From NCBI GenBank assembly GCA_035554995.1, contig DATMHK010000048.1:207-64206 (forward strand): a stretch of DNA of 64,000 bases. The letters run 5' to 3'. Both the position numbers and the translations under genes were made by a program. Positions 2,528-51,890 of the stretch are shown here, piece after piece (the stretch's first letter is position 1; the number at the start of each line of letters is the position of its first letter). The DNA comes from Gemmatimonadaceae bacterium (GTDB taxonomy: Bacteria > Gemmatimonadota > Gemmatimonadetes > Gemmatimonadales > Gemmatimonadaceae). The notes below the pieces were generated by a model. That model ran no database searches, was not told the origin of the DNA, and was given only the letters and a program-made list of their open reading frames with translations.

Positions 2528-4135
2528 ATGTCCATTCGTTACTCACGGGCACGGTTCGGCGCTGCGATCGTCGTAGCCTTCCTTTGCGGGCTTGTCTTCG
2601 CGTCAGGCTTCGACCTGACCCGCTTCAGCTGGGCCCAGGGTCGGGTCGGCTCGAGCAATGCGACCAAGCCGACCGCGGCCCAAGTGGCTCCAGCTGCCGA
2701 TATGGAATCGGCATTCGAGGCAGTCGCCGACCACGCGCGACCAGCCGTCGTCTCGATCGCGACCGAACGTTTTAACAAGCCGAAGGGGAATGCGCGACTC
2801 CGCGGGCGTAGCGGTGGCCAGCTGCCGCCCGGCCTCGAGGACCTCTTCCGTCAGTTCGACGGCGGCAATGGTCGCGACCTCCGGCCCGACGACACACCCG
2901 AAGAGGCCAGCGGCTCCGGCTTCATCGTCTCCAACGACGGTTACATCCTCACGAACAATCACGTCGTCGCCGACGCCGACCGCGTGAGCGTCACGCTGTT
3001 CGACAAGCGTCTGTTCATTGCCAAGGTCATCGGTCGCGATTCGACGACCGACGTCGCCGTCATCAAGATCGACGCAACCAACTTGCCGACACTTAGCCTC
3101 GGCGACGACGCCCGCGCGCGCGTCGGCCAGTGGGTGCTCGCCATCGGCAACCCGTTGCAGCTCGACTTCACGGTCACGGCCGGCATCGTGAGCGCCAAGG
3201 GACGCACGGCGCCCGGTCTTCTCAATCCAAACAACCGCAATCCGTACGCGATCACCGACTACATCCAGACGGACGCTGCGATCAACCCCGGCAACTCGGG
3301 TGGTCCGCTGCTCAACATCCACGGTGAAGTCATCGGCATCAACAGCGCGATCGCCAGTGGTACGGGTTACTACGCCGGCTACGGCTTCGCGATTCCGATC
3401 ACGCTCGCCAAGCAGGTGATGGACGACCTGATCAAGTTCGGGAAGATCCGTCGGGCGGTCGTGGGCGTCTCGCTCCTCGATCCCACACCGGCCGACGCAA
3501 AGGCCGCGGGGATGGCGCAGCCGGGCGGCGCCAAGGTGCAGGGCTTCAGTCCCGAGAACGACAGCCCAGGTCAGAAGGCCGGTCTCGAGATTGGTGACAT
3601 TATCGTCTCGGCGGACGGCAAGGTCGTCGATCAGGTGAGCACGCTGCAGCGAATCATCCGCGGCCACAAACCTGGCGACGTCGTGGACCTCGAGGCGATG
3701 CGCTTCGGCCAGAAGAAGACGTTCCACGTGAAGCTCGGCGAGCCGCCCGTGGATCTCGGTACTGTCGCGGCGAACGAAGATTCGGCGCCCGCCGCGCGCG
3801 CGGAAGACGTCGGCCGCGCGAACGACAAACTCGGGATCAGCGTCGACGCCGTGTCGAACGAGTTCGCGCAGCAGGTTCGCCTGCCCAGCCAGTTCCGCAC
3901 TGGACTTCGCGTCACCAACGTGACCGGCCGCGGCCCGGCGTATCGCACCTTGTTCAAAGACGACATCATCCTGTCCGAGCTCTTTCCGCAGCAGAGGCAG
4001 ATCAAAACGGTCGAAGATCTTCAGGCGGCCGTCTCGTCGCTGAAGGCCGGCGATGTGGTCGAGTTCAAGAAGTGCACGCCGCTGCCGACCGGCGGTTGTC
4101 AGACTGCAGCCGTGAGCATCCAGATCGAGAAGTAA
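2528..4135 (+). CDS. htrA: Periplasmic serine endoprotease, HtrA/DegP family (trypsin-like domain plus PDZ)
   Basis: 535-aa ORF with an N-terminal TM/signal segment. Motifs GSGFIVSNDGYILTNNHVV and GNSGGPLLN supply the catalytic His and Ser, followed by a PDZ-like C-terminal region. Confidence 0.93.
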   Translation: MSIRYSRARFGAAIVVAFLCGLVFASGFDLTRFSWAQGRVGSSNATKPTAAQVAPAADMESAFEAVADHARPAVVSIATERFNKPKGNARLRGRSGGQLPPGLEDLFRQFDGGNGRDLRPDDTPEEASGSGFIVSNDGYILTNNHVVADADRVSVTLFDKRLFIAKVIGRDSTTDVAVIKIDATNLPTLSLGDDARARVGQWVLAIGNPLQLDFTVTAGIVSAKGRTAPGLLNPNNRNPYAITDYIQTDAAINPGNSGGPLLNIHGEVIGINSAIASGTGYYAGYGFAIPITLAKQVMDDLIKFGKIRRAVVGVSLLDPTPADAKAAGMAQPGGAKVQGFSPENDSPGQKAGLEIGDIIVSADGKVVDQVSTLQRIIRGHKPGDVVDLEAMRFGQKKTFHVKLGEPPVDLGTVAANEDSAPAARAEDVGRANDKLGISVDAVSNEFAQQVRLPSQFRTGLRVTNVTGRGPAYRTLFKDDIILSELFPQQRQIKTVEDLQAAVSSLKAGDVVEFKKCTPLPTGGCQTAAVSIQIEK

Positions 4136-4153: not shown

Positions 4154-4193
4154 ACGACAAAGGGCGCCAGCAACTGGCGCCCTTTGTCGTTTC
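4154..4193. terminator. Bidirectional rho-independent terminator between convergent htrA and the histidine kinase gene
   Basis: Perfect 17-bp stem ACGACAAAGGGCGCCAG / CTGGCGCCCTTTGTCGT with a 3-nt loop. T-rich tails follow on both strands. Confidence 0.75.
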
Positions 4194-4216
4194 GCGTGTC
4201 CGCCCCCCCCGCGCCG

Positions 4217-5398
4217 TCAGCTGGCTTGTCTCGGTTCGGTAGCGACGGGGCCCGGACCACGCGGCGCTGATTTCGGCAGACGGATGCTGAAAGTCGTTCC
4301 TACGTCTGCCGCCGATTCGACATCGATCCGGCCGCCGTGGCCCTCCACGATCTTGTCGACGATGAACAATCCCAAACCCAGGTGGCGGCGGTCGCGGCCG
4401 CCGCTTGCGCCATCCTGCATTCCCGTGAAGAGGCGAAGCAACTTCTCGGGCACGATCGCCGAGCCGTCGTTGTGGACCGCGATGATCACATCTGCCTTCT
4501 CGGACCGCGCACTGACGGTGATCGGCCGGCTCGTGTCGCCGTGTTGCACCGCATTTCCGAGAAGATTCGTGAGCGCCTGAGCCAGTCGAGCCTCATCCCA
4601 GTCGCCGGTCAAGTCACCGTCCAGATTGAATTCGATTTTCGCGCGCGGATACGACGCCCGGACCTCGGTCACGACATCGCGAACAATCTTTCCGAGGTCG
4701 GCCGGCGCACGCACCACCGGCAGGCCCTCGCCGAGTCGACTCAGCGCCAGGTCGAGCAAGTCGGCGACGAGACCGCTCATCCGCTCGCCCGCGCTCTCGA
4801 TGCCTTGAATGAGGATCGTCTGTTGCGGCGTAAGGCCGCCAATCTCGATGAGGAAACTGGCGGACGCCGAAATCGCCCCAAGCGGATTGCGCAAATCATG
4901 TCCAAGGATCCCAAGGAATCGCTGTCTCGTCTCGTCGATCTCGCGCGTGTAGCGCGCGAGCGACTCGGCGATCGCCTGATCGATTGCTTCATTGAATCGG
5001 ATCAGGTCATTCAGCTCAGCGATCCCAAATTGACGCTGTTGGGACGTCCAGAGTCGCACCACACTGGCTCGCAGGGCGCGAAACTCAGCCACCATCTGGA
5101 CGGCCGTGAAGCCAACCTCGGCGCGTTCGTAACCGTGCTCCGCGGCCGCGGTCGCCGAGCTTTGCTGGTCGGCTGCGAGTCCCTTGGACTTGTCGGACTG
5201 CTCCGTCGCGGTTTGTGGAGTCTCCAAGTCGAGGGCGATCGCGTCGAGCATCGCCTTCGCATGATTGCGGCCCCTGTCCGCAGTGATCGGCGCGCCATGC
5301 GAAAGGTCCCGCGCAAACGTCTCCCACTCGGTCAGAATCTGGGGACTATTGCCGCGGATGAAGTTCGACAGCGTCGACATCAACACAGAATTTAGCAC
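4217..5398 (-). CDS. Sensor histidine kinase (HisKA plus HATPase_c), cytoplasmic type
   Basis: 393-aa ORF. H-box is HDLRNPLGAI, N-box LLGNAVQH, G-boxes GLGLFIV and GGRIDVES. No obvious TM segments. Confidence 0.9.
   Translation of the reverse strand: MLNSVLMSTLSNFIRGNSPQILTEWETFARDLSHGAPITADRGRNHAKAMLDAIALDLETPQTATEQSDKSKGLAADQQSSATAAAEHGYERAEVGFTAVQMVAEFRALRASVVRLWTSQQRQFGIAELNDLIRFNEAIDQAIAESLARYTREIDETRQRFLGILGHDLRNPLGAISASASFLIEIGGLTPQQTILIQGIESAGERMSGLVADLLDLALSRLGEGLPVVRAPADLGKIVRDVVTEVRASYPRAKIEFNLDGDLTGDWDEARLAQALTNLLGNAVQHGDTSRPITVSARSEKADVIIAVHNDGSAIVPEKLLRLFTGMQDGASGGRDRRHLGLGLFIVDKIVEGHGGRIDVESAADVGTTFSIRLPKSAPRGPGPVATEPRQAS

Positions 5399-21884: not shown

Positions 21885-21888
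<4 letters not shown>
21046..21888 (+). CDS. Hexapeptide-repeat (left-handed beta-helix) acyl/acetyltransferase
   Basis: The C-terminal half carries imperfect hexapeptide repeats (LEVGDNVVVHRHVLLDDRGGIVLGNRVSISDYANIY...VIEDGVRITYHATVLAGVHV). The N-terminal extension of about 100 aa is unassigned. Confidence 0.8.
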
Positions 21889-24065
<2,177 letters not shown>

Positions 24066-24076
24066 CGAATTGGAAC

Positions 24077-24145
24077 GAATTGGGGTCAGACCCTATTTAG
24101 AGAATTCTAAATAGGGTCTGACCCCAATTCGGTACGTCTTCGGGG
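24077..24145. repeat. Palindromic element, copy 1: perfect 25-bp stem, 4-nt loop, plus conserved 3' flank
   Basis: GAATTGGGGTCAGACCCTATTTAGA-GAAT-TCTAAATAGGGTCTGACCCCAATTC (24077-24130) is followed by GGTACGTCTTCGGGG. It fills the gap between the OMP stop (24146) and the ATPase start (24065). Confidence 0.9.
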
Positions 24146-26227
24146 CTAGAGGATTTTCCAGAACTCGCGGATCACGTCGACGCTGAACGTCCAACGGCCG
24201 TTCGTACCCAGGCCGCGCGCTACGTCGAAGCGGAGCAAGTCGAATGGGAACAGGTAGGCGGCGCCGACGGTCGGAAAACCGCGCGGAATCGGTCCGCCGG
24301 TGCCGACGACGTGCGCGAACGGAGCGAACGAGCCGCGCGCCGGCACGCGTCCGAACCGGCCGAGCGAGAACGCGGGGAACGGAGCCGGTATGCGAAGCTC
24401 GAGATGTTCGCTCCAGCCGAACGTCGACACGATCGAGTGGTAGTCGTACCCTGGTCCGGACACGGGTCCGCCAAGATAGACCAGATCGGCGACCGGAACG
24501 GGCGCTCCGCCGATCAGCGTCCGTACACCCGCGACGGTCGTCGCGGTGACGACGCGAAGGTTGCCCGCGGGACGCTCGATGTTGGCGACCAGCGCGCCGC
24601 GAATTGTCCCGAGGTCGGACGCGTCGAACCCTGCGACATTCGACTCGAATGGCAGCGTCAACCTCGCGTCGGCATGAAACGCCAGCTCGGTACCGAGCCA
24701 CCACAGCGACGGAACGCGCTCCGCACCCACCACCCAACGCGTGACATGGCGATCGTCCGCAGGAATTGTCGGCCCGTAATGCCCGGTCACCGGCGTCGCA
24801 TGGACGGCGAGGGCGTTCTGATGCTCGTACGTTCCGGTGAACCGAATCGTCGTGCCACCGAACTCGGGAAACTCGTAGCGCAGTCCGCCAGCTTCCACGA
24901 GATACGGATCCGTGTAGTCGCTTCCGAATTCCTGCGCCGCGAGACTGTTGACCGCGCCCGACCGCTCGGCGACGTCGCCGACGTCTCGAAAGTCGTGCTC
25001 ACCGAACAGTCGGAACGAACCGAACGACGGACGGGCGAAGGTGATCCCGCCGCCGCCCTTCCCCGCGTGGTCGGCGAAGCCGTATCTCGCGCGGCCATCG
25101 ATCGACACGCCGCCGCCGAGCACCTTGGACAAGCCCGTACCCAAGGCCGGCCCCTCCACCCGGTTCACGTGCGCGATGTCCGAGATGGTCCGCGCGGAGA
25201 GGGCCGCGCGCTGCGGGCGAGCGAGCGCCTGGGCGCGCACCAACGCGCGCACTTCCTCTTGCACACGCTGAATGTCCGCGTCGGCCACCGCGCGAACGTC
25301 CGGCGGTAACGAATCGAGGATCCGGCCCTTCCACGGATACTTCGCCGTCACCTCGCGCGGTGCCTGGACGATCTCCGGGCCGGTGAAGATCATCGGAGGC
25401 GGCGAGAGATTGAAGCGATAGTCGCTGATCTCCCAGCGGCCGCGAATGATTCCGCGTGCCGGGAAATCCATCCACGTGCCAGACCGCCGGATCTCCACTT
25501 CCTGGTGGCTCGGCAGCCAGAATCGCCCGCCGACGAGCCGGTTCTCCAGCACGACCGACAGCTCCTCGAGTGCATTGTCCAGAAAGGCCGCTCGCGTGAA
25601 CCCGAGGTTCATACGGACGACCTGGCCCCCCGACGGATCGATGTAGATGGCGCCGACCACGCGCGGCTGGCGGTCGTCCTTCGGCCGGACTTTGACCTCG
25701 TAGACGTTGATTCGCTGCGCCCCGGCACCGATCGCGAAGCTGTCGGTGAGCGCAAAATCGTACTCCCTGAGTCCGAGTGACGACAATGGATGCGGGACGT
25801 CGCGCACTTCGTCGCCTTCGCCGATGCGTATGATGTTGGGGAAGTTGTTCTGGACGATGCCAAGATGGTCGCGGTGATAGGCAATGTCCGTCGGCAACAG
25901 CAACGTGTCGCGCCGACCGATGATTCGCTGCTTGCTCAGGTTGGGCGCGCGCCAGTAGACTTCGAGCTCGAGCTCGTCCGTCTTGATGACCTTCGGCGGT
26001 GTGCGAAGGCCTTCGCCGAGCTGTGCGAGGAAGGCGACGTACCCATGGGCGGAGGCCTGGTAGTCCGCGAGCCCGGTGTCGGCGAGCTGCTCGGCGCGGC
26101 GGCGCGTCGCCCCTTGGGCGAGCGACAGGCTGCGCGGATCGTTCCAGGTTTGCGCCCCCCCCCCCGCGGGTGCGACGCTATCCAACACAGTCGTGACTGC
26201 AAGAAACAACAACGCGGTACGCTTCAC
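24146..26227 (-). CDS. Large outer-membrane protein (Omp85/BamA-superfamily-like C-terminus suspected)
   Basis: Start trimmed to a GTG giving signal peptide VKRTALLFLAVTTVLDSVAPAGGGAQ. The protein is beta-rich with an aromatic-rich C-terminus ...RWTFSVDVIREFWKIL. The family call is tentative. Confidence 0.7.
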   Translation of the reverse strand: MKRTALLFLAVTTVLDSVAPAGGGAQTWNDPRSLSLAQGATRRRAEQLADTGLADYQASAHGYVAFLAQLGEGLRTPPKVIKTDELELEVYWRAPNLSKQRIIGRRDTLLLPTDIAYHRDHLGIVQNNFPNIIRIGEGDEVRDVPHPLSSLGLREYDFALTDSFAIGAGAQRINVYEVKVRPKDDRQPRVVGAIYIDPSGGQVVRMNLGFTRAAFLDNALEELSVVLENRLVGGRFWLPSHQEVEIRRSGTWMDFPARGIIRGRWEISDYRFNLSPPPMIFTGPEIVQAPREVTAKYPWKGRILDSLPPDVRAVADADIQRVQEEVRALVRAQALARPQRAALSARTISDIAHVNRVEGPALGTGLSKVLGGGVSIDGRARYGFADHAGKGGGGITFARPSFGSFRLFGEHDFRDVGDVAERSGAVNSLAAQEFGSDYTDPYLVEAGGLRYEFPEFGGTTIRFTGTYEHQNALAVHATPVTGHYGPTIPADDRHVTRWVVGAERVPSLWWLGTELAFHADARLTLPFESNVAGFDASDLGTIRGALVANIERPAGNLRVVTATTVAGVRTLIGGAPVPVADLVYLGGPVSGPGYDYHSIVSTFGWSEHLELRIPAPFPAFSLGRFGRVPARGSFAPFAHVVGTGGPIPRGFPTVGAAYLFPFDLLRFDVARGLGTNGRWTFSVDVIREFWKIL
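26155..26165 (-). repeat. Homopolymeric tract: 11 G on the coding strand (11 C on +) within codons about 21-25 of the OMP gene
   Basis: Counted directly: tgcgCCCCCC CCCCCgcggg. It encodes the A-G-G-G-A stretch at the predicted signal-peptidase region. Confidence 0.95.
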
Positions 26228-26335
26228 GCCGCGGATCCATGGAAACGACGCATGAAATCCGAATATCGCCGGGCACTTCGACCGGGGCAACCGCGCCGAT
26301 GATCGCACCATCCCGAGTCTCGTGTCCCGTGTCTC

Positions 26336-27856
26336 GTGTCTCATAAGGAATTCCGCGAGTACGTCCGGCGCGTCGCGACCGGCGCGCGCCGGCTGGTCCC
26401 CGTCTGGCGCGACGTATTACTCGACACCGACACACCGGTGGCAGCCTTCGCCAAGCTGCGACAAGATCCATTCGCGTTCTTGCTCGAGTCCGCGCCGGCA
26501 GGCGGCGAGATGTGGGCGCGCTACACCTTCATGGGGAGCGCGCCGCGCGCGGCGTGGCGGCTCGCCGACGGCGTAGTTCACGATTGGACACCCGAACGAG
26601 GCTGGCACAACGAACGCCGCCCCGACGATCCGCTCGCCGACCTCGAGGCGCTGCTCACGGCCGACGAGCCGGTGGCCGCGCCGGAGATCGGCGAGTTCTG
26701 GAGCGGCGCGGTCGGCTTCTTCGGCTACGACGTGGCTCGCCTCATCGAGCGGCTGCCGGCCCCTCCGGCGCGCGGGGTTCCGGTGCCCGACGCGTTGTTC
26801 GTGTTCACGGACGTGCTCGTGATCTTCGACAACCTGCGGTCGGAGGCGCGCGTCGTCGCCGCGGCGCGCGTCTCCAGCGAGGATTCCGACGCGATACTCG
26901 ATGCCGCGTATGACGACGCGACAAGGGCGATCGATGCCACCGTGGCGCGACTTCGTGGTCCCGGCAGCCTTGCCCCGCTCGATCTCGACCCGAAGGCCAA
27001 ACCGGTTGAGGGCCGGTCGAGCTACGATCGGGACAAGTTCCTCGCGGACGTCGAGCGCATCCGGCAGTACATCATCGCCGGCGATGCGTTTCAGGTGCAG
27101 CTGGCGCGGCGCATCGACGTGCCGCTCGACTTCGCGCCGTTGGATCTCTATCGGGCGCTGCGCGTCATCAATCCGTCGCCGTACATGTACCACCTCGTGC
27201 TCGACGGCGTGGAGATCGTCGGCAGCTCGCCGGAGTTGCTCATTCGCGTGAGCGCGAGCGGCACGGTGACGCTTCGTCCGATCGCCGGCACTCGCCGGCG
27301 CGGCCGCTCCGCGGAAGACGACGCGCGCATGACGGAAGAATTGATGAACGACGAAAAGGAGCGTGCCGAGCACCTCATGCTCGTCGATCTGGGACGCAAC
27401 GATGTTGGGCGCGTCGCGTCGTACGGGTCCGTTCGCGTCTCCGACCTCATGGTGATCGAGCGGTACTCGCACGTGCTGCACCTCGTCAGTCAAGTGGACG
27501 GCCAGCTGCGGCCCGGGCTCACGGCAATGGACGCCTTCCGCGCCGGCTTCCCGGCCGGTACCCTCACGGGGGCACCGAAGGTCCGGGCCATGGAGATCAT
27601 CGACGAAATGGAACCCGAGCGACGCGGACCGTATGGCGGCGCGGTGGGATACATCAGCGCCGGCGCAAAGCGAATGGACCTGGCGATCACCATTCGGACC
27701 TGTGTGATCGCCAACGGCGTGGCGTCGGTGCAATCCGCCGCCGGTGTCGTGTACGATTCGGTGCCGGAACAAGAGTTCCTCGAGCACCAGAACAAGGCAC
27801 GCGCGTTGCTCGCGGCAATCGGGCAAGCGCGCGCCGCGCGGACGCGACGGAGTTAG
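26336..27856 (+). CDS. trpE: Anthranilate synthase component I
   Basis: 506 aa. Motifs are LLESAPAGGE, NPSPYMYHL, IAGTRRRG, DEKERAEHLMLVDLGRND and GAPKVRAMEII. It has a GTG start. No trpG/D/C/B/A genes are adjacent. Confidence 0.93.
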   Translation: MSHKEFREYVRRVATGARRLVPVWRDVLLDTDTPVAAFAKLRQDPFAFLLESAPAGGEMWARYTFMGSAPRAAWRLADGVVHDWTPERGWHNERRPDDPLADLEALLTADEPVAAPEIGEFWSGAVGFFGYDVARLIERLPAPPARGVPVPDALFVFTDVLVIFDNLRSEARVVAAARVSSEDSDAILDAAYDDATRAIDATVARLRGPGSLAPLDLDPKAKPVEGRSSYDRDKFLADVERIRQYIIAGDAFQVQLARRIDVPLDFAPLDLYRALRVINPSPYMYHLVLDGVEIVGSSPELLIRVSASGTVTLRPIAGTRRRGRSAEDDARMTEELMNDEKERAEHLMLVDLGRNDVGRVASYGSVRVSDLMVIERYSHVLHLVSQVDGQLRPGLTAMDAFRAGFPAGTLTGAPKVRAMEIIDEMEPERRGPYGGAVGYISAGAKRMDLAITIRTCVIANGVASVQSAAGVVYDSVPEQEFLEHQNKARALLAAIGQARAARTRRS

Positions 27857-46067: not shown

Positions 46068-46550
46068 CTAGCTGAGCCCCACCAACGCGACCGACGCCTC
46101 ACCACCGCTGATCGTCAGGCGCGCGACGCTCGGCTGAAGGTCGAACCGCCGCGGCCCCGCCGCGCCCGGGTTCACCACCCAACGGTGGTCCGCCTCAACA
46201 ACGAGTTGTTTGTGCGTATGCCCGTACACGATCACGTCGGCGCTATATCGCTCGAGCAGCTTGGCCGGCGTCGGACTGCCAACCTCGTTGCCGTGGCTGA
46301 CGTGAATCTTTAGTCCACCGATTTCCGTGTCGATGCGCTCGACGAGATCGGGATCACCCGGTGGATCGGTGTTGCCGAACACGGCGCGCGTCGGCGCGAT
46401 CAGCTCCAGCTCGCGAAGGATCTCGCTTCCGCCGACGTCGCCGGCGTGCAGAATGAGCTCGACGCCGGCGAACGCAGTGTGCACGTCAGCGCGAAGCAGG
46501 CCGTGCGTGTCGGAGATGAGGCCGATCACGTGAACGCCGGCGTCGCTCAC
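46068..46550 (-). CDS. Metallophosphoesterase, YfcE/MJ0936 family
   Basis: I prefer the GTG that overlaps the ubiX stop (GTGA). Motifs are GLISDTHG, LHAGDV, GNTD and YGHTH. Confidence 0.85.
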   Translation of the reverse strand: MSDAGVHVIGLISDTHGLLRADVHTAFAGVELILHAGDVGGSEILRELELIAPTRAVFGNTDPPGDPDLVERIDTEIGGLKIHVSHGNEVGSPTPAKLLERYSADVIVYGHTHKQLVVEADHRWVVNPGAAGPRRFDLQPSVARLTISGGEASVALVGLS

Positions 46551-47155
46551 TCCTCTGCCCCGCTGGCCCCCCCCCACCGCGCGACGAGGCGGTGCGGGAC
46601 GCCGAAGTGATCGAGGACGCGCGCGACCACGAAGTTCACGAGGTCGTCGATCGACTTTGGCCCGTGATAGAACCCCGGCGCGGCCGGCATGATGATCACG
46701 CCCGCGTGCGTGAGGCGGAGCATGTTCTCGAGGTGGATCGCGCTGAGTGGCGTCTCACGAGGCACGAGAATCAGCTTTCGGCGCTCCTTGAGCGCGACGT
46801 CGGCGGCGCGTTCGACCAGCGAGCGCGACGCGCCGACGGAGATCGCCGACAGGGTGCCCATCGAGCACGGACAGATGACCATCCCGTCGCTCAGCGCCGA
46901 ACCCGACGCCGGCGTGGCGCCTCGATCGCCGTCGTCGAACACCGTGATCGAGCGGTCCCACCGTTCGGCGCCGACGTGCGAGCGGAGCGCCTCGAGAGAG
47001 GCGATACCCATCTCGGTGTCGAGCAGACGAAATCCGTGGCTCGACACGATGAGTTGTACGGGCCGGCGCGCTTCCGTGAGCGCCTCGAGCAGCCGAACGG
47101 CGTATGGCGCGCCCGAGGCACCGGTGATCGCGACGACGATCGGCCGTTCGCTCAT
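46547..47155 (-). CDS. ubiX: Flavin prenyltransferase UbiX
   Basis: 202 aa. Motifs are IVVAITGASGAPYAVRLLEAL and ICPCSMGTLSAI. Confidence 0.93.
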   Translation of the reverse strand: MSERPIVVAITGASGAPYAVRLLEALTEARRPVQLIVSSHGFRLLDTEMGIASLEALRSHVGAERWDRSITVFDDGDRGATPASGSALSDGMVICPCSMGTLSAISVGASRSLVERAADVALKERRKLILVPRETPLSAIHLENMLRLTHAGVIIMPAAPGFYHGPKSIDDLVNFVVARVLDHFGVPHRLVARWGGASGAEE

Positions 47156-48144
47156 CGGCCTGTTGGCAGAAAGGCGAGAACGACCGGGTTCGAGTGTACG
47201 AGCCGCTCGACGAGGGCCGCGGCGAAGAACGCGATGCTGATCACGCCGTTCATCGTGAAGAACGCGGCGTCGAGCCTCGAGAAGTCATCGTGCTTCACCA
47301 GCGAATGCTCGTACAGCAGCAACCCCGCGGTGATGACGACGCCCGTCGCATAGAAGGATCCGGCATGCGTTCCAGTGAACGTCGCCGCTCCGACTGCCGC
47401 CAGACAGAGAACCGTCGTCACGTGAAGCGAGCGCGCCATGAGCAGCGCCCGCCGTGGACCAAACGACGCGGGAAGCGAGTGGAGACTCAAGCTGCGGTCG
47501 AAGTCGATGTCCTGGAGCGCGTATAGCACGTCGAAGCCCGCGCCCCACGTCGCCACGGCCAGGGCGAGAGCGATGAGCATCCACCATGGATCGCTCCAGG
47601 CGCCGGTAACGGCGAGATATCCGCCGACTGGAGCGATCGACATGCCGACGCCGAGCACGAGATGACACCAGCGCGTGAAGCGTTTGGTGAAGCTGTAGAA
47701 GAAGACCCAGCCCAACGCGACCGGCGAGAGCAATCCGCACAGCCGGTTCAGCTGCCAGGCGGCGAGGACGAAGAGCAGCGACGCCACCGCCACGGCGATC
47801 ATCGCTTCAGTCACGCGTAAAGCGCCGCTCGGAATCTCGCGTCGTTGCGTGCGCGGATTCCTGGCGTCGATCGCCCGGTCCACGATGCGGTTGAAGCCCA
47901 TCGCGGCAAAGCGCGCACAGGTGAACGCCAACACGACCCAGCCCAGCGCTCCCCAGGTGACGGGCGCCCGGTACGACGCCAGCACGACACCGACGAGCGC
48001 GAACGGCAGCGCGAATAGCGTGTGCGGCAGCTTCACGAAATTCACATAGACGAGCCAGCGCGACCCGCGATGCTCGAAGGTCTGTCCTTCGCGCGAGTCC
48101 GTGCGCGGCGATTCCTGCTGCGGAAAGCCCGACGCCGCGCCCAT
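47152..48144 (-). CDS. ubiA: UbiA-family aromatic prenyltransferase (4-hydroxybenzoate polyprenyltransferase-like)
   Basis: Start trimmed to the ATG forming an ATGA overlap with the ubiD stop. The protein is multi-TM with NRIVDRAIDARNPRT (the NxxxDxxxD motif) and YALQDIDFD. Confidence 0.88.
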   Translation of the reverse strand: MGAASGFPQQESPRTDSREGQTFEHRGSRWLVYVNFVKLPHTLFALPFALVGVVLASYRAPVTWGALGWVVLAFTCARFAAMGFNRIVDRAIDARNPRTQRREIPSGALRVTEAMIAVAVASLLFVLAAWQLNRLCGLLSPVALGWVFFYSFTKRFTRWCHLVLGVGMSIAPVGGYLAVTGAWSDPWWMLIALALAVATWGAGFDVLYALQDIDFDRSLSLHSLPASFGPRRALLMARSLHVTTVLCLAAVGAATFTGTHAGSFYATGVVITAGLLLYEHSLVKHDDFSRLDAAFFTMNGVISIAFFAAALVERLVHSNPVVLAFLPTGR

Positions 48145-49643
48145 CAGCGACCCGTGCTTGCCGCGCGGCCGTCGATGCCGAGTCGCGACCACATCGCGTC
48201 GACACGCCGTTTGGTATCGTCGTCCATCTCGATCACGTCCGGCCAGTCACGGGTGAATCCTTCCTCGGGCAGCTTTCGCGTCGCGTCGAAGCCGACTTTG
48301 GAGCCGTAGGTGAAGGCGCGACTCGAGTGATCGAGCACGTCCATCGGCCCCATGGTGAACCGGGCGTCGCGCTGCGGATCGATGTTGTTGAGCGCCACCC
48401 ACCAGGCCTCCTGCGGGTCGCGCACGTTGACCCACGAATCGACGACGACGAGCACCTTCGCCAGCGACATCAACCCCTGACCCCACAGCGCGTTCATCAC
48501 TTTGTATGCCTGACCCGGATATTCCTTCTTGATCGATACGAATACGAGATTGTGGAAGATTCCTTCCGCCGGCATGTGATAGTCGACGATCTCCGGAATC
48601 GTCAGCTTGAGCAGCGGGAGGAAGATGCGCTCCGTCGCGTGGCCGAGGTAGAAGTCTTCCATCGGCGGCCGCCCGACGATCGTCGCCGGAAAGATCGGGG
48701 ACTTTCGCATGGTGATCGCTTTGACGTGCACCTGCGGATACAAATCCGCGAGCGAATAGAAGCCCGTGTGATCGCCGAACGGCCCTTCGGTGACGAGCGG
48801 TTCGGCCGGATCGATCTCCCCCTCGATCACGAAGTCTGCTTCGGCGGGCACGTCGAGATCACACGTCACGGCCTTGGTGAGCGACACGGGCTCGCGTCGC
48901 AGGAAACCGGCGAAGAGGAACTCGTCGACGGTCGGCGGCAGCGGCGCGCTCGCCGAATACATCGACGGCGGGTCAGCGCCGAGCGCGATGCAGACCGGCA
49001 TCTTCTCGCCGCGCTCGGCCATCTCGCGCCAGTGCGCCGCGCCGACTTTGTGCCGCTGCCAGTGCATGGCGAGCGTCGTCTTGCCCGTCTGCATGATGCG
49101 GTACATGCCGACGTTGCGGATGCCGCGCTTCGGGTCTCGCGTGATCACCATCGGGAAGGTGATGTATGGCCCACCGTCCTGCGGCCAGCACTTCATGAGC
49201 GGCAGCTGGTCGAGATCGACGCGGTTCCCCTGCCAAACAATTTCCTGCGACGGTGCGTCGCCGCGGCGCGTACGGGGCGGAAACTTCCCGACCTCGAGGA
49301 GCCGCGGCAGGAGCGCCAGCTTGGCGATGATCCCCTCGGGGACCTTCATCTCCATCAGTTCGGTGATGCGGCCGCCGATTTCGTCGAGCGACTCGACGCC
49401 CAGCGACATGGCCATCCGGCGCATCGAACCGAACAAGTTGATTCCCACCGGGAACGCGGACGGCTGTCCGTTCATCAGCAGGGGTCGCTCGAACAACAGC
49501 GCCTTCCCGCCGCCGGGTTGCTTCATCACCCGATCGGCGATCTCGCACATCTCGCGATCGAGCGAAACCGGCTGGGTGATGCGAACGAGCTCGCCGGCAC
49601 GATCGAGCGCCGCCACGAATTCGGTTAGGGTGTCGAGTGCCAT
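48144..49643 (-). CDS. ubiD: UbiD-family (prFMN-dependent) decarboxylase
   Basis: Start trimmed to MALDTLTEFVAALDRAGELVRI, giving 499 aa. The upstream 200 codons of the track ORF are Arg-rich and overlap ubiE. Confidence 0.92.
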   Translation of the reverse strand: MALDTLTEFVAALDRAGELVRITQPVSLDREMCEIADRVMKQPGGGKALLFERPLLMNGQPSAFPVGINLFGSMRRMAMSLGVESLDEIGGRITELMEMKVPEGIIAKLALLPRLLEVGKFPPRTRRGDAPSQEIVWQGNRVDLDQLPLMKCWPQDGGPYITFPMVITRDPKRGIRNVGMYRIMQTGKTTLAMHWQRHKVGAAHWREMAERGEKMPVCIALGADPPSMYSASAPLPPTVDEFLFAGFLRREPVSLTKAVTCDLDVPAEADFVIEGEIDPAEPLVTEGPFGDHTGFYSLADLYPQVHVKAITMRKSPIFPATIVGRPPMEDFYLGHATERIFLPLLKLTIPEIVDYHMPAEGIFHNLVFVSIKKEYPGQAYKVMNALWGQGLMSLAKVLVVVDSWVNVRDPQEAWWVALNNIDPQRDARFTMGPMDVLDHSSRAFTYGSKVGFDATRKLPEEGFTRDWPDVIEMDDDTKRRVDAMWSRLGIDGRAASTGR

Positions 49644-49672
49644 TCGGAGCCGTTCAGAGATGACCGAGCGCG

Positions 49673-50425
49673 CTAGGGCTTGGTGCCGCGGTGAATCGCC
49701 GCGACGCCGAACGTGAGCGACTGCCACTGCACGTCGCTGAATCCCGCCGCGCGCATGCGGTCGGCGAGCTTCTCCTCGGGCGGAAAGTTGGCGACCGAGC
49801 GCGGCAGATAGGTGTAGGCCGTGCGGTGGCCGCTCACGACAGCGCCGACTCGCGGAAGAACTTGGTGGAAGTAGAAGTGATAGAGCGCGCGAACCACCAC
49901 CGAACGGGGCGTCGTGAAATCGAGGATGACGAAGCGGGACCCGGGCTCGAGGACGCGCAGGACTTCTCGCAGTCCGGCGTCGAGGTCGGCGACATTCCGG
50001 ATGCCGAAGGCGACGATCGCCCCGCTCACCGAGCTCTCGCGCATCGGCAGCTGCAGCGCGTCGGATACGACCGGAGACACTGTCTCGCGCGAAACCTTGC
50101 CCGTTCCGGCACGGAGCATTGGTTCGGCGAAATCGGCCCCCACGATTCGGCCGGCAAACCCTTTGGACCGCGCCAGCTGCGCCGAGACGTCGAGTGTCCC
50201 GGCGCAAACGTCGACGTAGGTTCCGGTGGGCTTCCGCTCCCATCCGAGCACGGCCAGCGCCTTCCGGCGCCAGGCGCGGTCGATGTTGAAACTGAGCAGA
50301 TGATTGAGGAGGTCGTAGCGCGGCGCGATCTCCGAAAAGATGCGCCGAACGTAGACTCGCTTGGCCGCGCCGCCGTCCGCGGCCGCTGCCTGTGCCTCTT
50401 CCGCCTCCAACTCACGTACGGGCAT
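49673..50425 (-). CDS. ubiE: Demethylmenaquinone/ubiquinone C-methyltransferase UbiE/MenG
   Basis: 250 aa. Motifs are YDLLNHLLSFNIDRAWRR and the SAM motif VDVCAGTLD. Confidence 0.92.
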   Translation of the reverse strand: MPVRELEAEEAQAAAADGGAAKRVYVRRIFSEIAPRYDLLNHLLSFNIDRAWRRKALAVLGWERKPTGTYVDVCAGTLDVSAQLARSKGFAGRIVGADFAEPMLRAGTGKVSRETVSPVVSDALQLPMRESSVSGAIVAFGIRNVADLDAGLREVLRVLEPGSRFVILDFTTPRSVVVRALYHFYFHQVLPRVGAVVSGHRTAYTYLPRSVANFPPEEKLADRMRAAGFSDVQWQSLTFGVAAIHRGTKP

Positions 50426-50513
50426 CGTTCAAAGTTGCCGGTGCCGTCTGAGTGTGGCAAGCCGATGTGGCTGGTATGTAAGCCCTTGTGGACCTAATTT
50501 TTGCTTGGCCGAA

Positions 50514-51140
50514 ATGCCACCAGCCCTCGACCTCTTCAACCTTCCGGACGCCGACGTCGTTGCGCTGGCTCAGCAAGGGCGAGATTCGGCATTCCGTGAG
50601 TTGATTCGCCGGTACGAGCGACCCGTGTTCTCGCTGATCTATCGCATGGTCCGCGATCGCGAGCTGGCCGAGGATCTCGCCCAGGACACGTTCATCAAGG
50701 TCCTGAACCACATCGACCGGTATCGGCCTGAGTTCAAGCTTTCGAGCTGGCTGTTCAAGATCGCCAACAACGTGGCGATCGATCACCTGCGCCGACGGCA
50801 CCTCGACACGATCAGCATCGACGGCTCTCCGCACGCCCAGACCGCCGACGCCATCGAGGCGACCTCATTCGACGTGGCGGTGCAACAAGAATCCGCACTC
50901 GACGAGCTCGAGGCCCGTGAGCTGGGAACCGCCATCGAGCGCGCCATCTCGGGGCTGCGGCCGGAATACCGCTCCTGCATCATGCTGCGCCATGTGGAAG
51001 GCCGGTCGTACGAAGAGATCGCCACCACGTTGGACCTTCCGCTCGGTACCGTGAAGACCTACATCCATCGCGCCCGGCATGAGCTGCGCAGGGCGCTCGA
51101 ACACGTTCGCGAGGGCGACGCGTCCGATGACGACGAATAG
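50514..51140 (+). CDS. ECF (group 4) RNA polymerase sigma factor
   Basis: Start trimmed to MPPALDLFNL. Region 2 is FRELIRRYERPVFSLIYRMVRDRELAEDLAQDTFIK, and region 4 is SYEEIATTLDLPLGTVKTYIHRARHELR. Confidence 0.9.
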   Translation: MPPALDLFNLPDADVVALAQQGRDSAFRELIRRYERPVFSLIYRMVRDRELAEDLAQDTFIKVLNHIDRYRPEFKLSSWLFKIANNVAIDHLRRRHLDTISIDGSPHAQTADAIEATSFDVAVQQESALDELEARELGTAIERAISGLRPEYRSCIMLRHVEGRSYEEIATTLDLPLGTVKTYIHRARHELRRALEHVREGDASDDDE

Positions 51141-51183
51141 GCCTGGCCCTCGCATGGGTATCCCGGTGACCGGCATCACCGTC

Positions 51184-51249
51184 GGCTGCTCGGCAACTCG
51201 GCTTCTCGGCTGTTGCCGAGCGGCCGAGGAGCCGAGAGGCCGAGTAGCC
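51184..51249. repeat. Octamer-built hairpin: (NNCTCGGC)x3 - TGTT - (GCCGAGNN)x4
   Basis: Read directly. Three 6-bp CTCGGC:GCCGAG helices are separated by 2x2 mismatches. It lies in the 159-nt spacer between the sigma and anti-sigma genes. Confidence 0.85.
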
Positions 51250-51299
51250 ATTCTGAAACCCTGTCCCACCCACCTCCGTATAGCTACACCGGAGACTCA

Positions 51300-51890
51300 A
51301 TGAACCATCGGCACCTGCTTCCCGACGAGATCGATCTCCTCCTCGATGACGAGGTGGGCTTTGGCGTTCCCCCCCTTCGCGCCCATTTGCGCGAATGTGG
51401 CGAGTGCCGGGCTCGCGTCGAGGATGCGCGGATGGCGGTGGACGCCCTCGAGGCGGTCCCCCATTTCGCACCTACGCACACCTTTGCCGATAAGGTGATG
51501 TCCCAGGTGCCGGTGTTCGTCCCGTGGCACGTCACGGCGCGCGATACCGTCGCCCGCTGGCTGCCGCAATCGCGGCCGGCTCGCGTCGCCGTGGCGCTGC
51601 TCGCCACATCCGCAGCCTCTGTCATGACGGTGGCGATCCTCTGGATCGCGACTCAGACAGACGTCCTTGTCCTGGCTTCCGGCGCCGCGGGCGACCGGGT
51701 TCGTTCGCTGGTCTTCGAGGCGGGCCGTGTCGTACTTGCCACTGTCTTCGGTGACCAGATGTTCCGGATCATCCAAAGCACCGGCGTCGTGGGTGTAGCC
51801 GCCGCGCTGCTTGGACTGGCCGCGGCAACCGCCGGTTCAATCGCCGGGCTCCGCTCACTAGCGATAGCGTCAAGCCGCCGTCGGGCGTAG
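51300..51890 (+). CDS. Anti-sigma factor (zf-HC2 type) with C-terminal TM segments
   Basis: Start trimmed to MNHRHLLPDEIDLL. HLRECGECRARV matches the H-x3-C-x2-C motif. Hydrophobic segments follow. Confidence 0.75.
   Translation: MNHRHLLPDEIDLLLDDEVGFGVPPLRAHLRECGECRARVEDARMAVDALEAVPHFAPTHTFADKVMSQVPVFVPWHVTARDTVARWLPQSRPARVAVALLATSAASVMTVAILWIATQTDVLVLASGAAGDRVRSLVFEAGRVVLATVFGDQMFRIIQSTGVVGVAAALLGLAAATAGSIAGLRSLAIASSRRRA

Follow-up and report, generated by a model that had tools for sequence, protein, structure and literature searches.

The locus and its product

The window analysed here, a 64-kb stretch of DNA from a member of the Gemmatimonadaceae, carries a gene for a predicted secreted DUF5686 protein with a modelled C-terminal β-barrel, referred to below as the barrel gene, between a gene for an ATPase-Nudix fusion and trpE (Table 1). 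An earlier note on this DNA had placed the barrel gene directly upstream of the ATPase-Nudix gene, which agrees with the gap of 80 nt between the two and their common strand. In GTDB, the barrel gene was found in 73 species of the Gemmatimonadaceae, with identities of 45-89%, and is adjoined by trpE in all 73 species loci and by the ATPase-Nudix gene in 58 of them. Because its synteny is fixed across the 73 species, the barrel gene looks like a conserved, single-locus and core-like rather than an accessory gene, and is probably important.

Table 1. Features of the barrel gene and its surroundings, in window coordinates.
Feature	Position	Strand	Details
MshEN-T2SSE ATPase fused to Nudix domain	21885..24065	-	Co-oriented, 80 nt downstream of barrel gene
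Gene for 693-aa secreted (predicted) DUF5686 protein with modelled Omp85-like C-terminal β-barrel	24146..26227	-	GTG 26227-26225, stop 24148-24146
Predicted 16-strand β-barrel region, residues about 350-693	24149..25180	-	AlphaFold model, pLDDT mostly 80-90
Predicted Sec signal peptide, 25 aa, VKRTALLFLAVTTVLDSVAPAGGGA	26153..26227	-	By inspection; predicted cleavage before Q26
G11 homopolymer	26155..26165	-	Third base of Ala21, Gly22-Gly23-Gly24, first base of Ala25
ATC codon where close relatives have the start ATG (MRGVKR...)	26234..26236	-	L013, L023 and L086: ATG CGC GRC GTG; window: ATC CGC GGC GTG
trpE, anthranilate synthase component I	26336..27856	+	Divergent; 108-bp intergenic region common with barrel gene

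Translated from its GTG, the product has 693 residues, not the 690 reported earlier. It matches DUF5686 (PF18939) with a score of 42.0 bits against a gathering cut-off of 39.2, and the match is partial, covering profile positions 58-216 of 669. Its 4301 homologues carry a precomputed PF18939 match, and those that are named all come from Gemmatimonadaceae or Gemmatimonadota MAGs. No match to NCBIfam was obtained, and a literature search on the function of DUF5686 returned nothing functional and one incidental mention. AlphaFold modelling with an alignment of 30 sequences gave 16 strands at residues 352-685 with a pLDDT of about 80-90; the model is poor over residues 47-350, with pLDDT values below 50 in the N-terminal half. 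The best Foldseek matches of the barrel are BamA, TamA, FhaC and Sam50 (E from 5e-8 to 1e-5, target-normalised TM up to 0.64). Because these matches tie the modelled barrel to the BamA/TamA type of fold, the label 'outer-membrane protein' attached to the product earlier is supported at the fold level, and the protein would reside in the outer membrane. With its predicted 16-strand C-terminal barrel the protein resembles Omp85 barrels, but it differs from them in that neither PF01103 (Bac_surface_Ag) nor POTRA was found in the Pfam/NCBIfam search, in that a PDB sequence search with the family profile gave a single, spurious match (E = 0.8), and in that its N-terminal half belongs to DUF5686 and is poorly modelled.

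Signal peptide and start codon

By inspection, the N-terminus resembles a Sec signal peptide, with K2 and R3 ahead of an 11-residue hydrophobic core (A5-L15) and G23-G24-A25 at positions -3 to -1. The AlphaFold model places a helix at residues 2-17, and in the translation from the GTG VKRTALLFLAVTTVLDSVAPAGGGA is followed by QTWNDP. The family-invariant columns of the 30-sequence alignment start at Q26 and continue with W28, N29 and D30, and relatives have A-G-A ahead of Q at the putative cleavage site. The G11 tract corresponds to predicted signal-peptide positions -5 to -1, and the pattern fits cleavage by signal peptidase directly after the residues that the tract encodes. The invariant columns from Q26 and the inspected N-terminus are in keeping with the earlier placement of the tract in the signal-peptide region, at the predicted cleavage site.

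The ATG at which close relatives start is an ATC in the window (Table 1), and the start is therefore likely to have shifted to the GTG three codons downstream, which is conserved in the relatives. The NCBI and ENA records start the gene at this same GTG; a JGI gene call starts at an upstream ATG and yields a 721-aa form. In the 732-aa ORF, two ATG codons (M1 and M12) lie further upstream, and we disfavour them as starts on account of a 28-residue extension without signal character and of the relatives' start at MRGV.

The G11 tract and the consequences of slippage

Direct reading of the window gives CCCCCCCCCCC, 11 C, on the forward strand at 26155-26165, and hence G11 on the coding (minus) strand. 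The enclosing ORF extends over 24146..26344 (-); with the GTG (26227-26225) as origin, the tract starts at offset 62. The coding strand runs GTG AAG CGT ... GCA CCC GCG GGG GGG GGG GCG CAA ACC TGG, with the surroundings of the tract encoding A19 P20 A21 G22 G23 G24 A25 Q26 T27 W28. This is the longest homopolymer of the window; the others of at least 7 nt are C9 at 46567-46575, C8 at 4203-4210 and C7 at 51369-51375. Each added base reduces the number of G/C runs about 6-fold, and extrapolation of this decay gives a chance expectation of 6.6e-4 G/C runs of at least 11 nt per 64 kb. The homologous loci of 73 other Gemmatimonadaceae species, 526 kb in all, contain no G/C run longer than 8 nt. The G11 run is genuine and lies well outside chance expectation. 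Our reading of the tract coincides with the earlier note, which had described an 11-nt poly-G tract at this position, encoding A-G-G-G-A (GCG GGG GGG GGG GCG) about 62 nt past the GTG, had ranked it ahead of the 9-mer and the 8-mer, and had called an 11-mer uncommon even in a GC-rich genome. As a separate observation, the window is richer in long G/C runs (8, 9 and 11 nt) than the relatives, which have none above 8 nt in the same 526 kb.

Changing the tract length in silico leaves the full-length protein intact at G5, G8, G11 and G14. With G10 or G13, translation would end after about 96 aa, with G9 or G12 after about 408-409 aa; no in-frame restart is available after the tract ahead of codon 109, which itself lies within conserved sequence. 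With the tract 62 nt into the ORF, reading-frame analysis indicates that a length change by a number that is not a multiple of three would switch expression. Tracts of poly-G/C of at least 9 nt are flagged as phase-variable loci in PhasomeIt and in the prediction of the Neisseria phasome, and with 11 nt the present tract lies above this threshold of mutable length (PMC5953494). Judged from its anatomy, the tract could work mechanically as an ON/OFF switch.

Alleles in relatives and sister strains

There is no sign in orthologues of a tract maintained by selection, as a homopolymer is present at the site in none of the 14 relatives read there and no run exceeds 8 nt in the 73 loci. The closest relatives have GCG GGC GCG (G3; L023, 89%) and GCC GGC GCG (L013, 86%), and minor strains that co-occur in the metagenome runs have GCG GGG GCG (G5) or GCG GGC GCG. 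A sister allele found in L086 and L087 (98.4% nt identity) reads GCG AGG GGG GGC GCG, a segment of equal length in which G7 is bounded by A and C. All alleles found at the site (G3, G5, G7 and G11) are in frame. The comparison of tract length among related strains, which the earlier note had recommended, returned a constant length within the G11 lineage and G3, G5 or an interrupted G7 outside it, and among the sequences compared the tract is lineage-specific.

The barrel gene changes frame in three of the 73 loci (L047, L069 and L080). These were considered as OFF alleles and rejected: the shifts lie at positions other than the tract, and only in MFD-labelled MAGs. Our guess is that they are assembly indels of long-read assemblies.

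Tract length in metagenomes and in a control tract

Nineteen Illumina runs from soil or rhizosphere (X1-X14, X16, X17, X24, X25 and X28) cover the tract, and all 19 have exactly 11 G and no indel in Logan contigs, which are consensus-like and drop rare variants, such that OFF cells could make up as much as tens of percent of a low-depth sample (6-25x) and still escape. Many of the 19 runs may share one region or project series and are perhaps not fully independent. The tract is also 11 G in all five metagenome contigs (L001, L006 and L007 from JGI, L088 and L089 from ENA), and is still so in the two ENA contigs, in which the barrel gene has 5-8 SNPs relative to the window. At the protein level, AGGGAQ is kept in at least five haplotypes of the 90% cluster. 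The sampled populations are not identical, since about 40 SNP sites were seen among the runs over 46400-51500. A pattern scan of metagenomes with the flanks and a variable gap gave 12 loci, of which three, the JGI contigs L001, L006 and L007 counted above, were true, all with 11 G, and nine were unrelated chance matches.

The intergenic C8 tract at 4203-4210 served as a control; the genes on either side of it are convergent, and it follows closely on a terminator-like hairpin. Seven of the same runs have lengths of 8, 8, 9, 9, 9 and 10 and one interrupted variant at this tract, and in an eighth run the tract breaks the contig. Non-modal lengths were thus found in 0 of 19 runs for G11 vs 4 of 7 for C8 (Fisher test, p = 0.002). 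Because the control varies, this organism does produce slippage alleles, and the data used here can reveal them. The coding tract C9 (46567-46575) and the C7 tract (51369-51375) were unvarying in four runs.

The earlier note had read the G11 tract as a possible phase-variation switch, had proposed a search for length heterogeneity (10, 11 or 12 G) in metagenomic data, and had named a lack of length polymorphism across strains as the result that would speak against its reading. That is the result obtained at the consensus level: 19 of 19 runs and five of five contigs have 11 G, and repeat numbers that differ among strains, with out-of-frame alleles, were seen in none of these 24 sequences.

Interpretation of the tract

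We consider it probable that the G11 tract is a stable in-frame expansion of Gly codons, a tolerated insertion, and not a working population-level ON/OFF switch. According to this model, the signal-peptide c-region would have gained 6 nt at a Gly codon in this lineage, from GCG-GGS-GCG to GCG-GGG-GGG-GGG-GCG. The expansion would have been tolerated because the segment lies just upstream of the putative signal-peptidase site, so that the residues encoded by the tract would be cut off with the signal peptide and be absent from the mature protein. As a run of 11 G is intrinsically slippery, a 1-nt slip in either direction would give a truncated product. Such frameshifted variants would be purged by purifying selection, as we propose that the protein matters in every habitat sampled, and the length would be held at 11, the ON state. 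We infer selection as the cause of the length invariance.

The main competitor of this model is a true contingency locus, with reversible slipped-strand switching between ON (G11) and OFF (G10 or G12), OFF cells being a minority and ON cells the majority in bulk soil. The benefit may lie in bet-hedging against attackers for which the protein is the receptor, such as phages, bacteriocins or predators. We regard such a locus as a tentative possibility, and rather doubt the more specific scenario in which the switch silences the conserved Omp85-like protein in a minority of cells, which would, for example, escape a receptor-using phage or toxin, with ON dominant in bulk samples. The anatomy is classic, in that a tract of at least 9 nt lies early in the coding sequence of a gene for a predicted outer-membrane barrel, a 1-nt change leads to a stop at 96 or about 409 aa, and no usable in-frame restart occurs before codon 109. 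In Neisseria and Campylobacter, poly-G tracts switch at high rates at lengths well below 11 nt. The strongly non-random run, the slippage alleles that the C8 control tract reveals in the organism, and the sister strain with a segment of equal length broken by A and C, which implies that the site has been evolving, all favour a contingency locus as well, and the long G/C runs of the window (8, 9 and 11 nt) could reflect selection for mutable tracts. Against it stand the consensus-level absence of any allele of other length or out of frame from 19 runs, five contigs and the cluster members, the absence of the tract from all other species compared, and a synteny fixed across 73 species, which typical accessory contingency genes do not show. 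A literature search on phase variation in the Gemmatimonadota found no report.

The remaining alternatives concern the reality and the reading of the tract. A true start downstream of the tract, which would leave it untranslated and which the earlier note had itself named as fatal to a switch, is very improbable. The start is made less certain by the ATC in place of the relatives' ATG and by the lack of a clear Shine-Dalgarno sequence before the GTG, but the GTG is conserved in relatives and both the frame and the signal-peptide-like sequence run on across the tract. Moreover, the in-frame starts that lie past the GTG but ahead of the tract all fall inside the hydrophobic core, the next ones occur at codon 109 or later, inside the invariant family columns that begin at Q26, and β-barrel outer-membrane proteins need a signal peptide. 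Programmed recoding, in which RNA polymerase or the ribosome would slip on the G run and so give rise to a second functional product from another frame, can be regarded as extremely improbable: long homopolymers can cause RNA polymerase slippage in general, but documented cases are, as far as we know, mostly on A/T runs, the shifted-frame products are Arg/Pro-rich nonsense ending at 96 or about 409 aa, and the relatives without the tract leave no conserved alternative product. Homopolymers are error-prone in all sequencing chemistries, and a sequencing or assembly artefact, or a true length other than 11, was also weighed; it is hardly credible here given that the same in-frame 11-mer comes from separate assemblies of 19 Illumina runs and from the JGI and ENA pipelines, with unique flanks and an intact ORF.

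Comparison with known systems

The closest parallels are the poly-G (poly-C) tracts of pilC1 and pilC2 in Neisseria, which are 9-20 nt long and phase-variable by slippage, and in which, as here, a mononucleotide G/C run in the 5' part of the coding sequence of an envelope-associated gene is placed such that a 1-nt slip abolishes the full-length product (PMC5953494). The likeness ends with variation: pilC tracts differ in length between isolates and within cultures and are often out of frame, whereas the 24 sequences collected here all have 11 G, with no OFF allele seen. The host also differs, being a free-living soil member of the Gemmatimonadaceae, as does the gene, a core-like one for an Omp85-type barrel. 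In work by Jonsson et al. in 1991 the pilC tract was reportedly located in the part of the gene coding for the signal peptide. Repeats in signal-peptide coding regions are familiar from oipA, hopZ and sabA of Helicobacter pylori, which have CT repeats, and from the opa genes of Neisseria with CTCTT repeats. These genes are analogous to the barrel gene in that an in-frame change of the leader-coding repeat spares the mature protein and an out-of-frame change silences it. Unlike the homopolymer described here, which lies in a single-copy conserved gene and showed no variants, they involve di- or pentanucleotide repeats in multi-copy variable adhesins for which ON/OFF variants are documented between strains.

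Many long coding poly-G/C tracts of Bordetella and Mycobacterium are not known to switch, and are either fixed in length among strains or stabilised by interruptions. The G11 tract, with its fixed length and with a sister allele (L086/L087) interrupted to G7, resembles these non-switching tracts of GC-rich genomes. We know of no catalogue of homopolymeric tracts for the Gemmatimonadota.

Implications

The G11 tract represents a potential site of simple sequence repeat (SSR) variation in a phylum with none known, and currently behaves as a stable in-frame insertion. If it were a true switch, no phase-variable locus would have been described in the Gemmatimonadota before it, SSR control of a core Omp85-family gene would be unusual, and SSR phase variation would reach beyond host-associated pathogens into a soil phylum that is abundant and uncultured. 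The DUF5686/Omp85-like protein would then stand out as a target on the cell surface that is exposed to fluctuating selection. The current value of the finding is mainly methodological, as a textbook-like poly-G 'switch' has a fixed length in natural populations, in the same genome in which a neutral tract drifts. Because G11 stays fixed while C8 drifts, tract anatomy alone over-predicts phase variation, and the c-region of signal peptides emerges as a permissive place for such runs to accumulate. For the organism itself, the best reading is that the tract is a mutational liability or a neutral passenger.

Homopolymers across the window

All four homopolymers of at least 7 nt in the window are poly-C on the + strand, and its G/C runs reach 8, 9 and 11 nt, whereas none exceeds 8 nt in 526 kb from 73 related species. 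G/C runs may tend to lengthen in this genome with a strand bias, or all four runs could fall on one strand by chance (p ~1/8). The 8-nt poly-C tract is flanked by a convergent gene pair and follows directly on a terminator-like hairpin (about 4161-4187). Tract length varies among the soil and rhizosphere metagenome runs, read as Logan contigs: 8 in X2 and X3, 9 in X6, X7 and X9, and 10 in X4, with an interrupted variant in X5 and a contig broken at the tract in X1. The G9 run overlaps the GTG assigned mechanically as the start of the following ORF (46068..46577, minus strand), which encodes a metallophosphoesterase-like protein, and no length change was seen there in runs X1, X2, X4 and X7.

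Homopolymers and repeats, with the sister-strain codons aligned to the G11 site
Feature	Position	Strand	Context
Poly-C tract	4203-4210		intergenic, between HtrA-like protease gene (2528..4135 +) and histidine-kinase gene (4217..5398 -)
G11 tract	26155-26165	-	predicted signal-peptide codons of barrel gene
G9 run	46567-46575	-	codes W-G-G-A near C-terminus of UbiX-like flavin prenyltransferase ORF (46547..47155 -)
Fourth homopolymer	51369-51375		
Heptamer tandem repeat TCCCGTG / GTCTCGT, ~4 copies	26311-26342		end of 108-bp divergent intergenic region
Codons aligned to G11 site, sister strain	L086 967-975; L087 643-651		

The barrel gene and its 5′ region

The sister strain (loci L086 and L087) shares 98.4% nucleotide identity with the window over the barrel gene and encodes the same mature protein. 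In its signal peptide (MRGVKRAALWFVAVTSVLGTGAPARGGAQ) it resembles the relatives, and its G run is cut to G7 by one A and one C, a combination that could have arisen by recombination near the 5′ end or by point-mutational stabilisation of the tract. Close relatives start the gene with an ATG (MRGVKR...), whereas the window lineage has ATC at 26234-26236, which implies that initiation here has moved three codons downstream, to a GTG that is conserved. On the other side of the intergenic region, the heptamer repeat extends into the GTG start of trpE (26336). In many runs the contig graph forks at 26274-26330 into two alternative sequences of 119 nt, distinguished by 3 positions; strains therefore differ there.

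Three orthologues from MFD-labelled metagenome-assembled genomes (L047, L069 and L080) shift frame once or twice at sites unrelated to the signal peptide. No long homopolymer was present in their junction sequences, and the shift in L069 lies in an A-rich stretch. Our guess is that the assemblies come from long reads and that assembly indels, not OFF alleles, account for the shifts. One contig of 2.5 kb (DASSJA010000244.1), which is binned as 'Burkholderiales bacterium', encodes a fragment 70% identical to the Gemmatimonadaceae-type barrel protein and is probably mis-binned.

Conserved gene order

Gemmatimonadaceae keep the order of divergent trpE, the DUF5686/Omp85-like barrel gene and the MshEN-T2SSE-Nudix ATPase gene (window 21885-27856; loci L013-L085 of relatives), with trpE neighbouring the barrel gene in all 73 loci and the ATPase gene in 58 of them. 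This conservation is a hint that the barrel protein and the 'orphan' secretion-type ATPase may be functionally linked.
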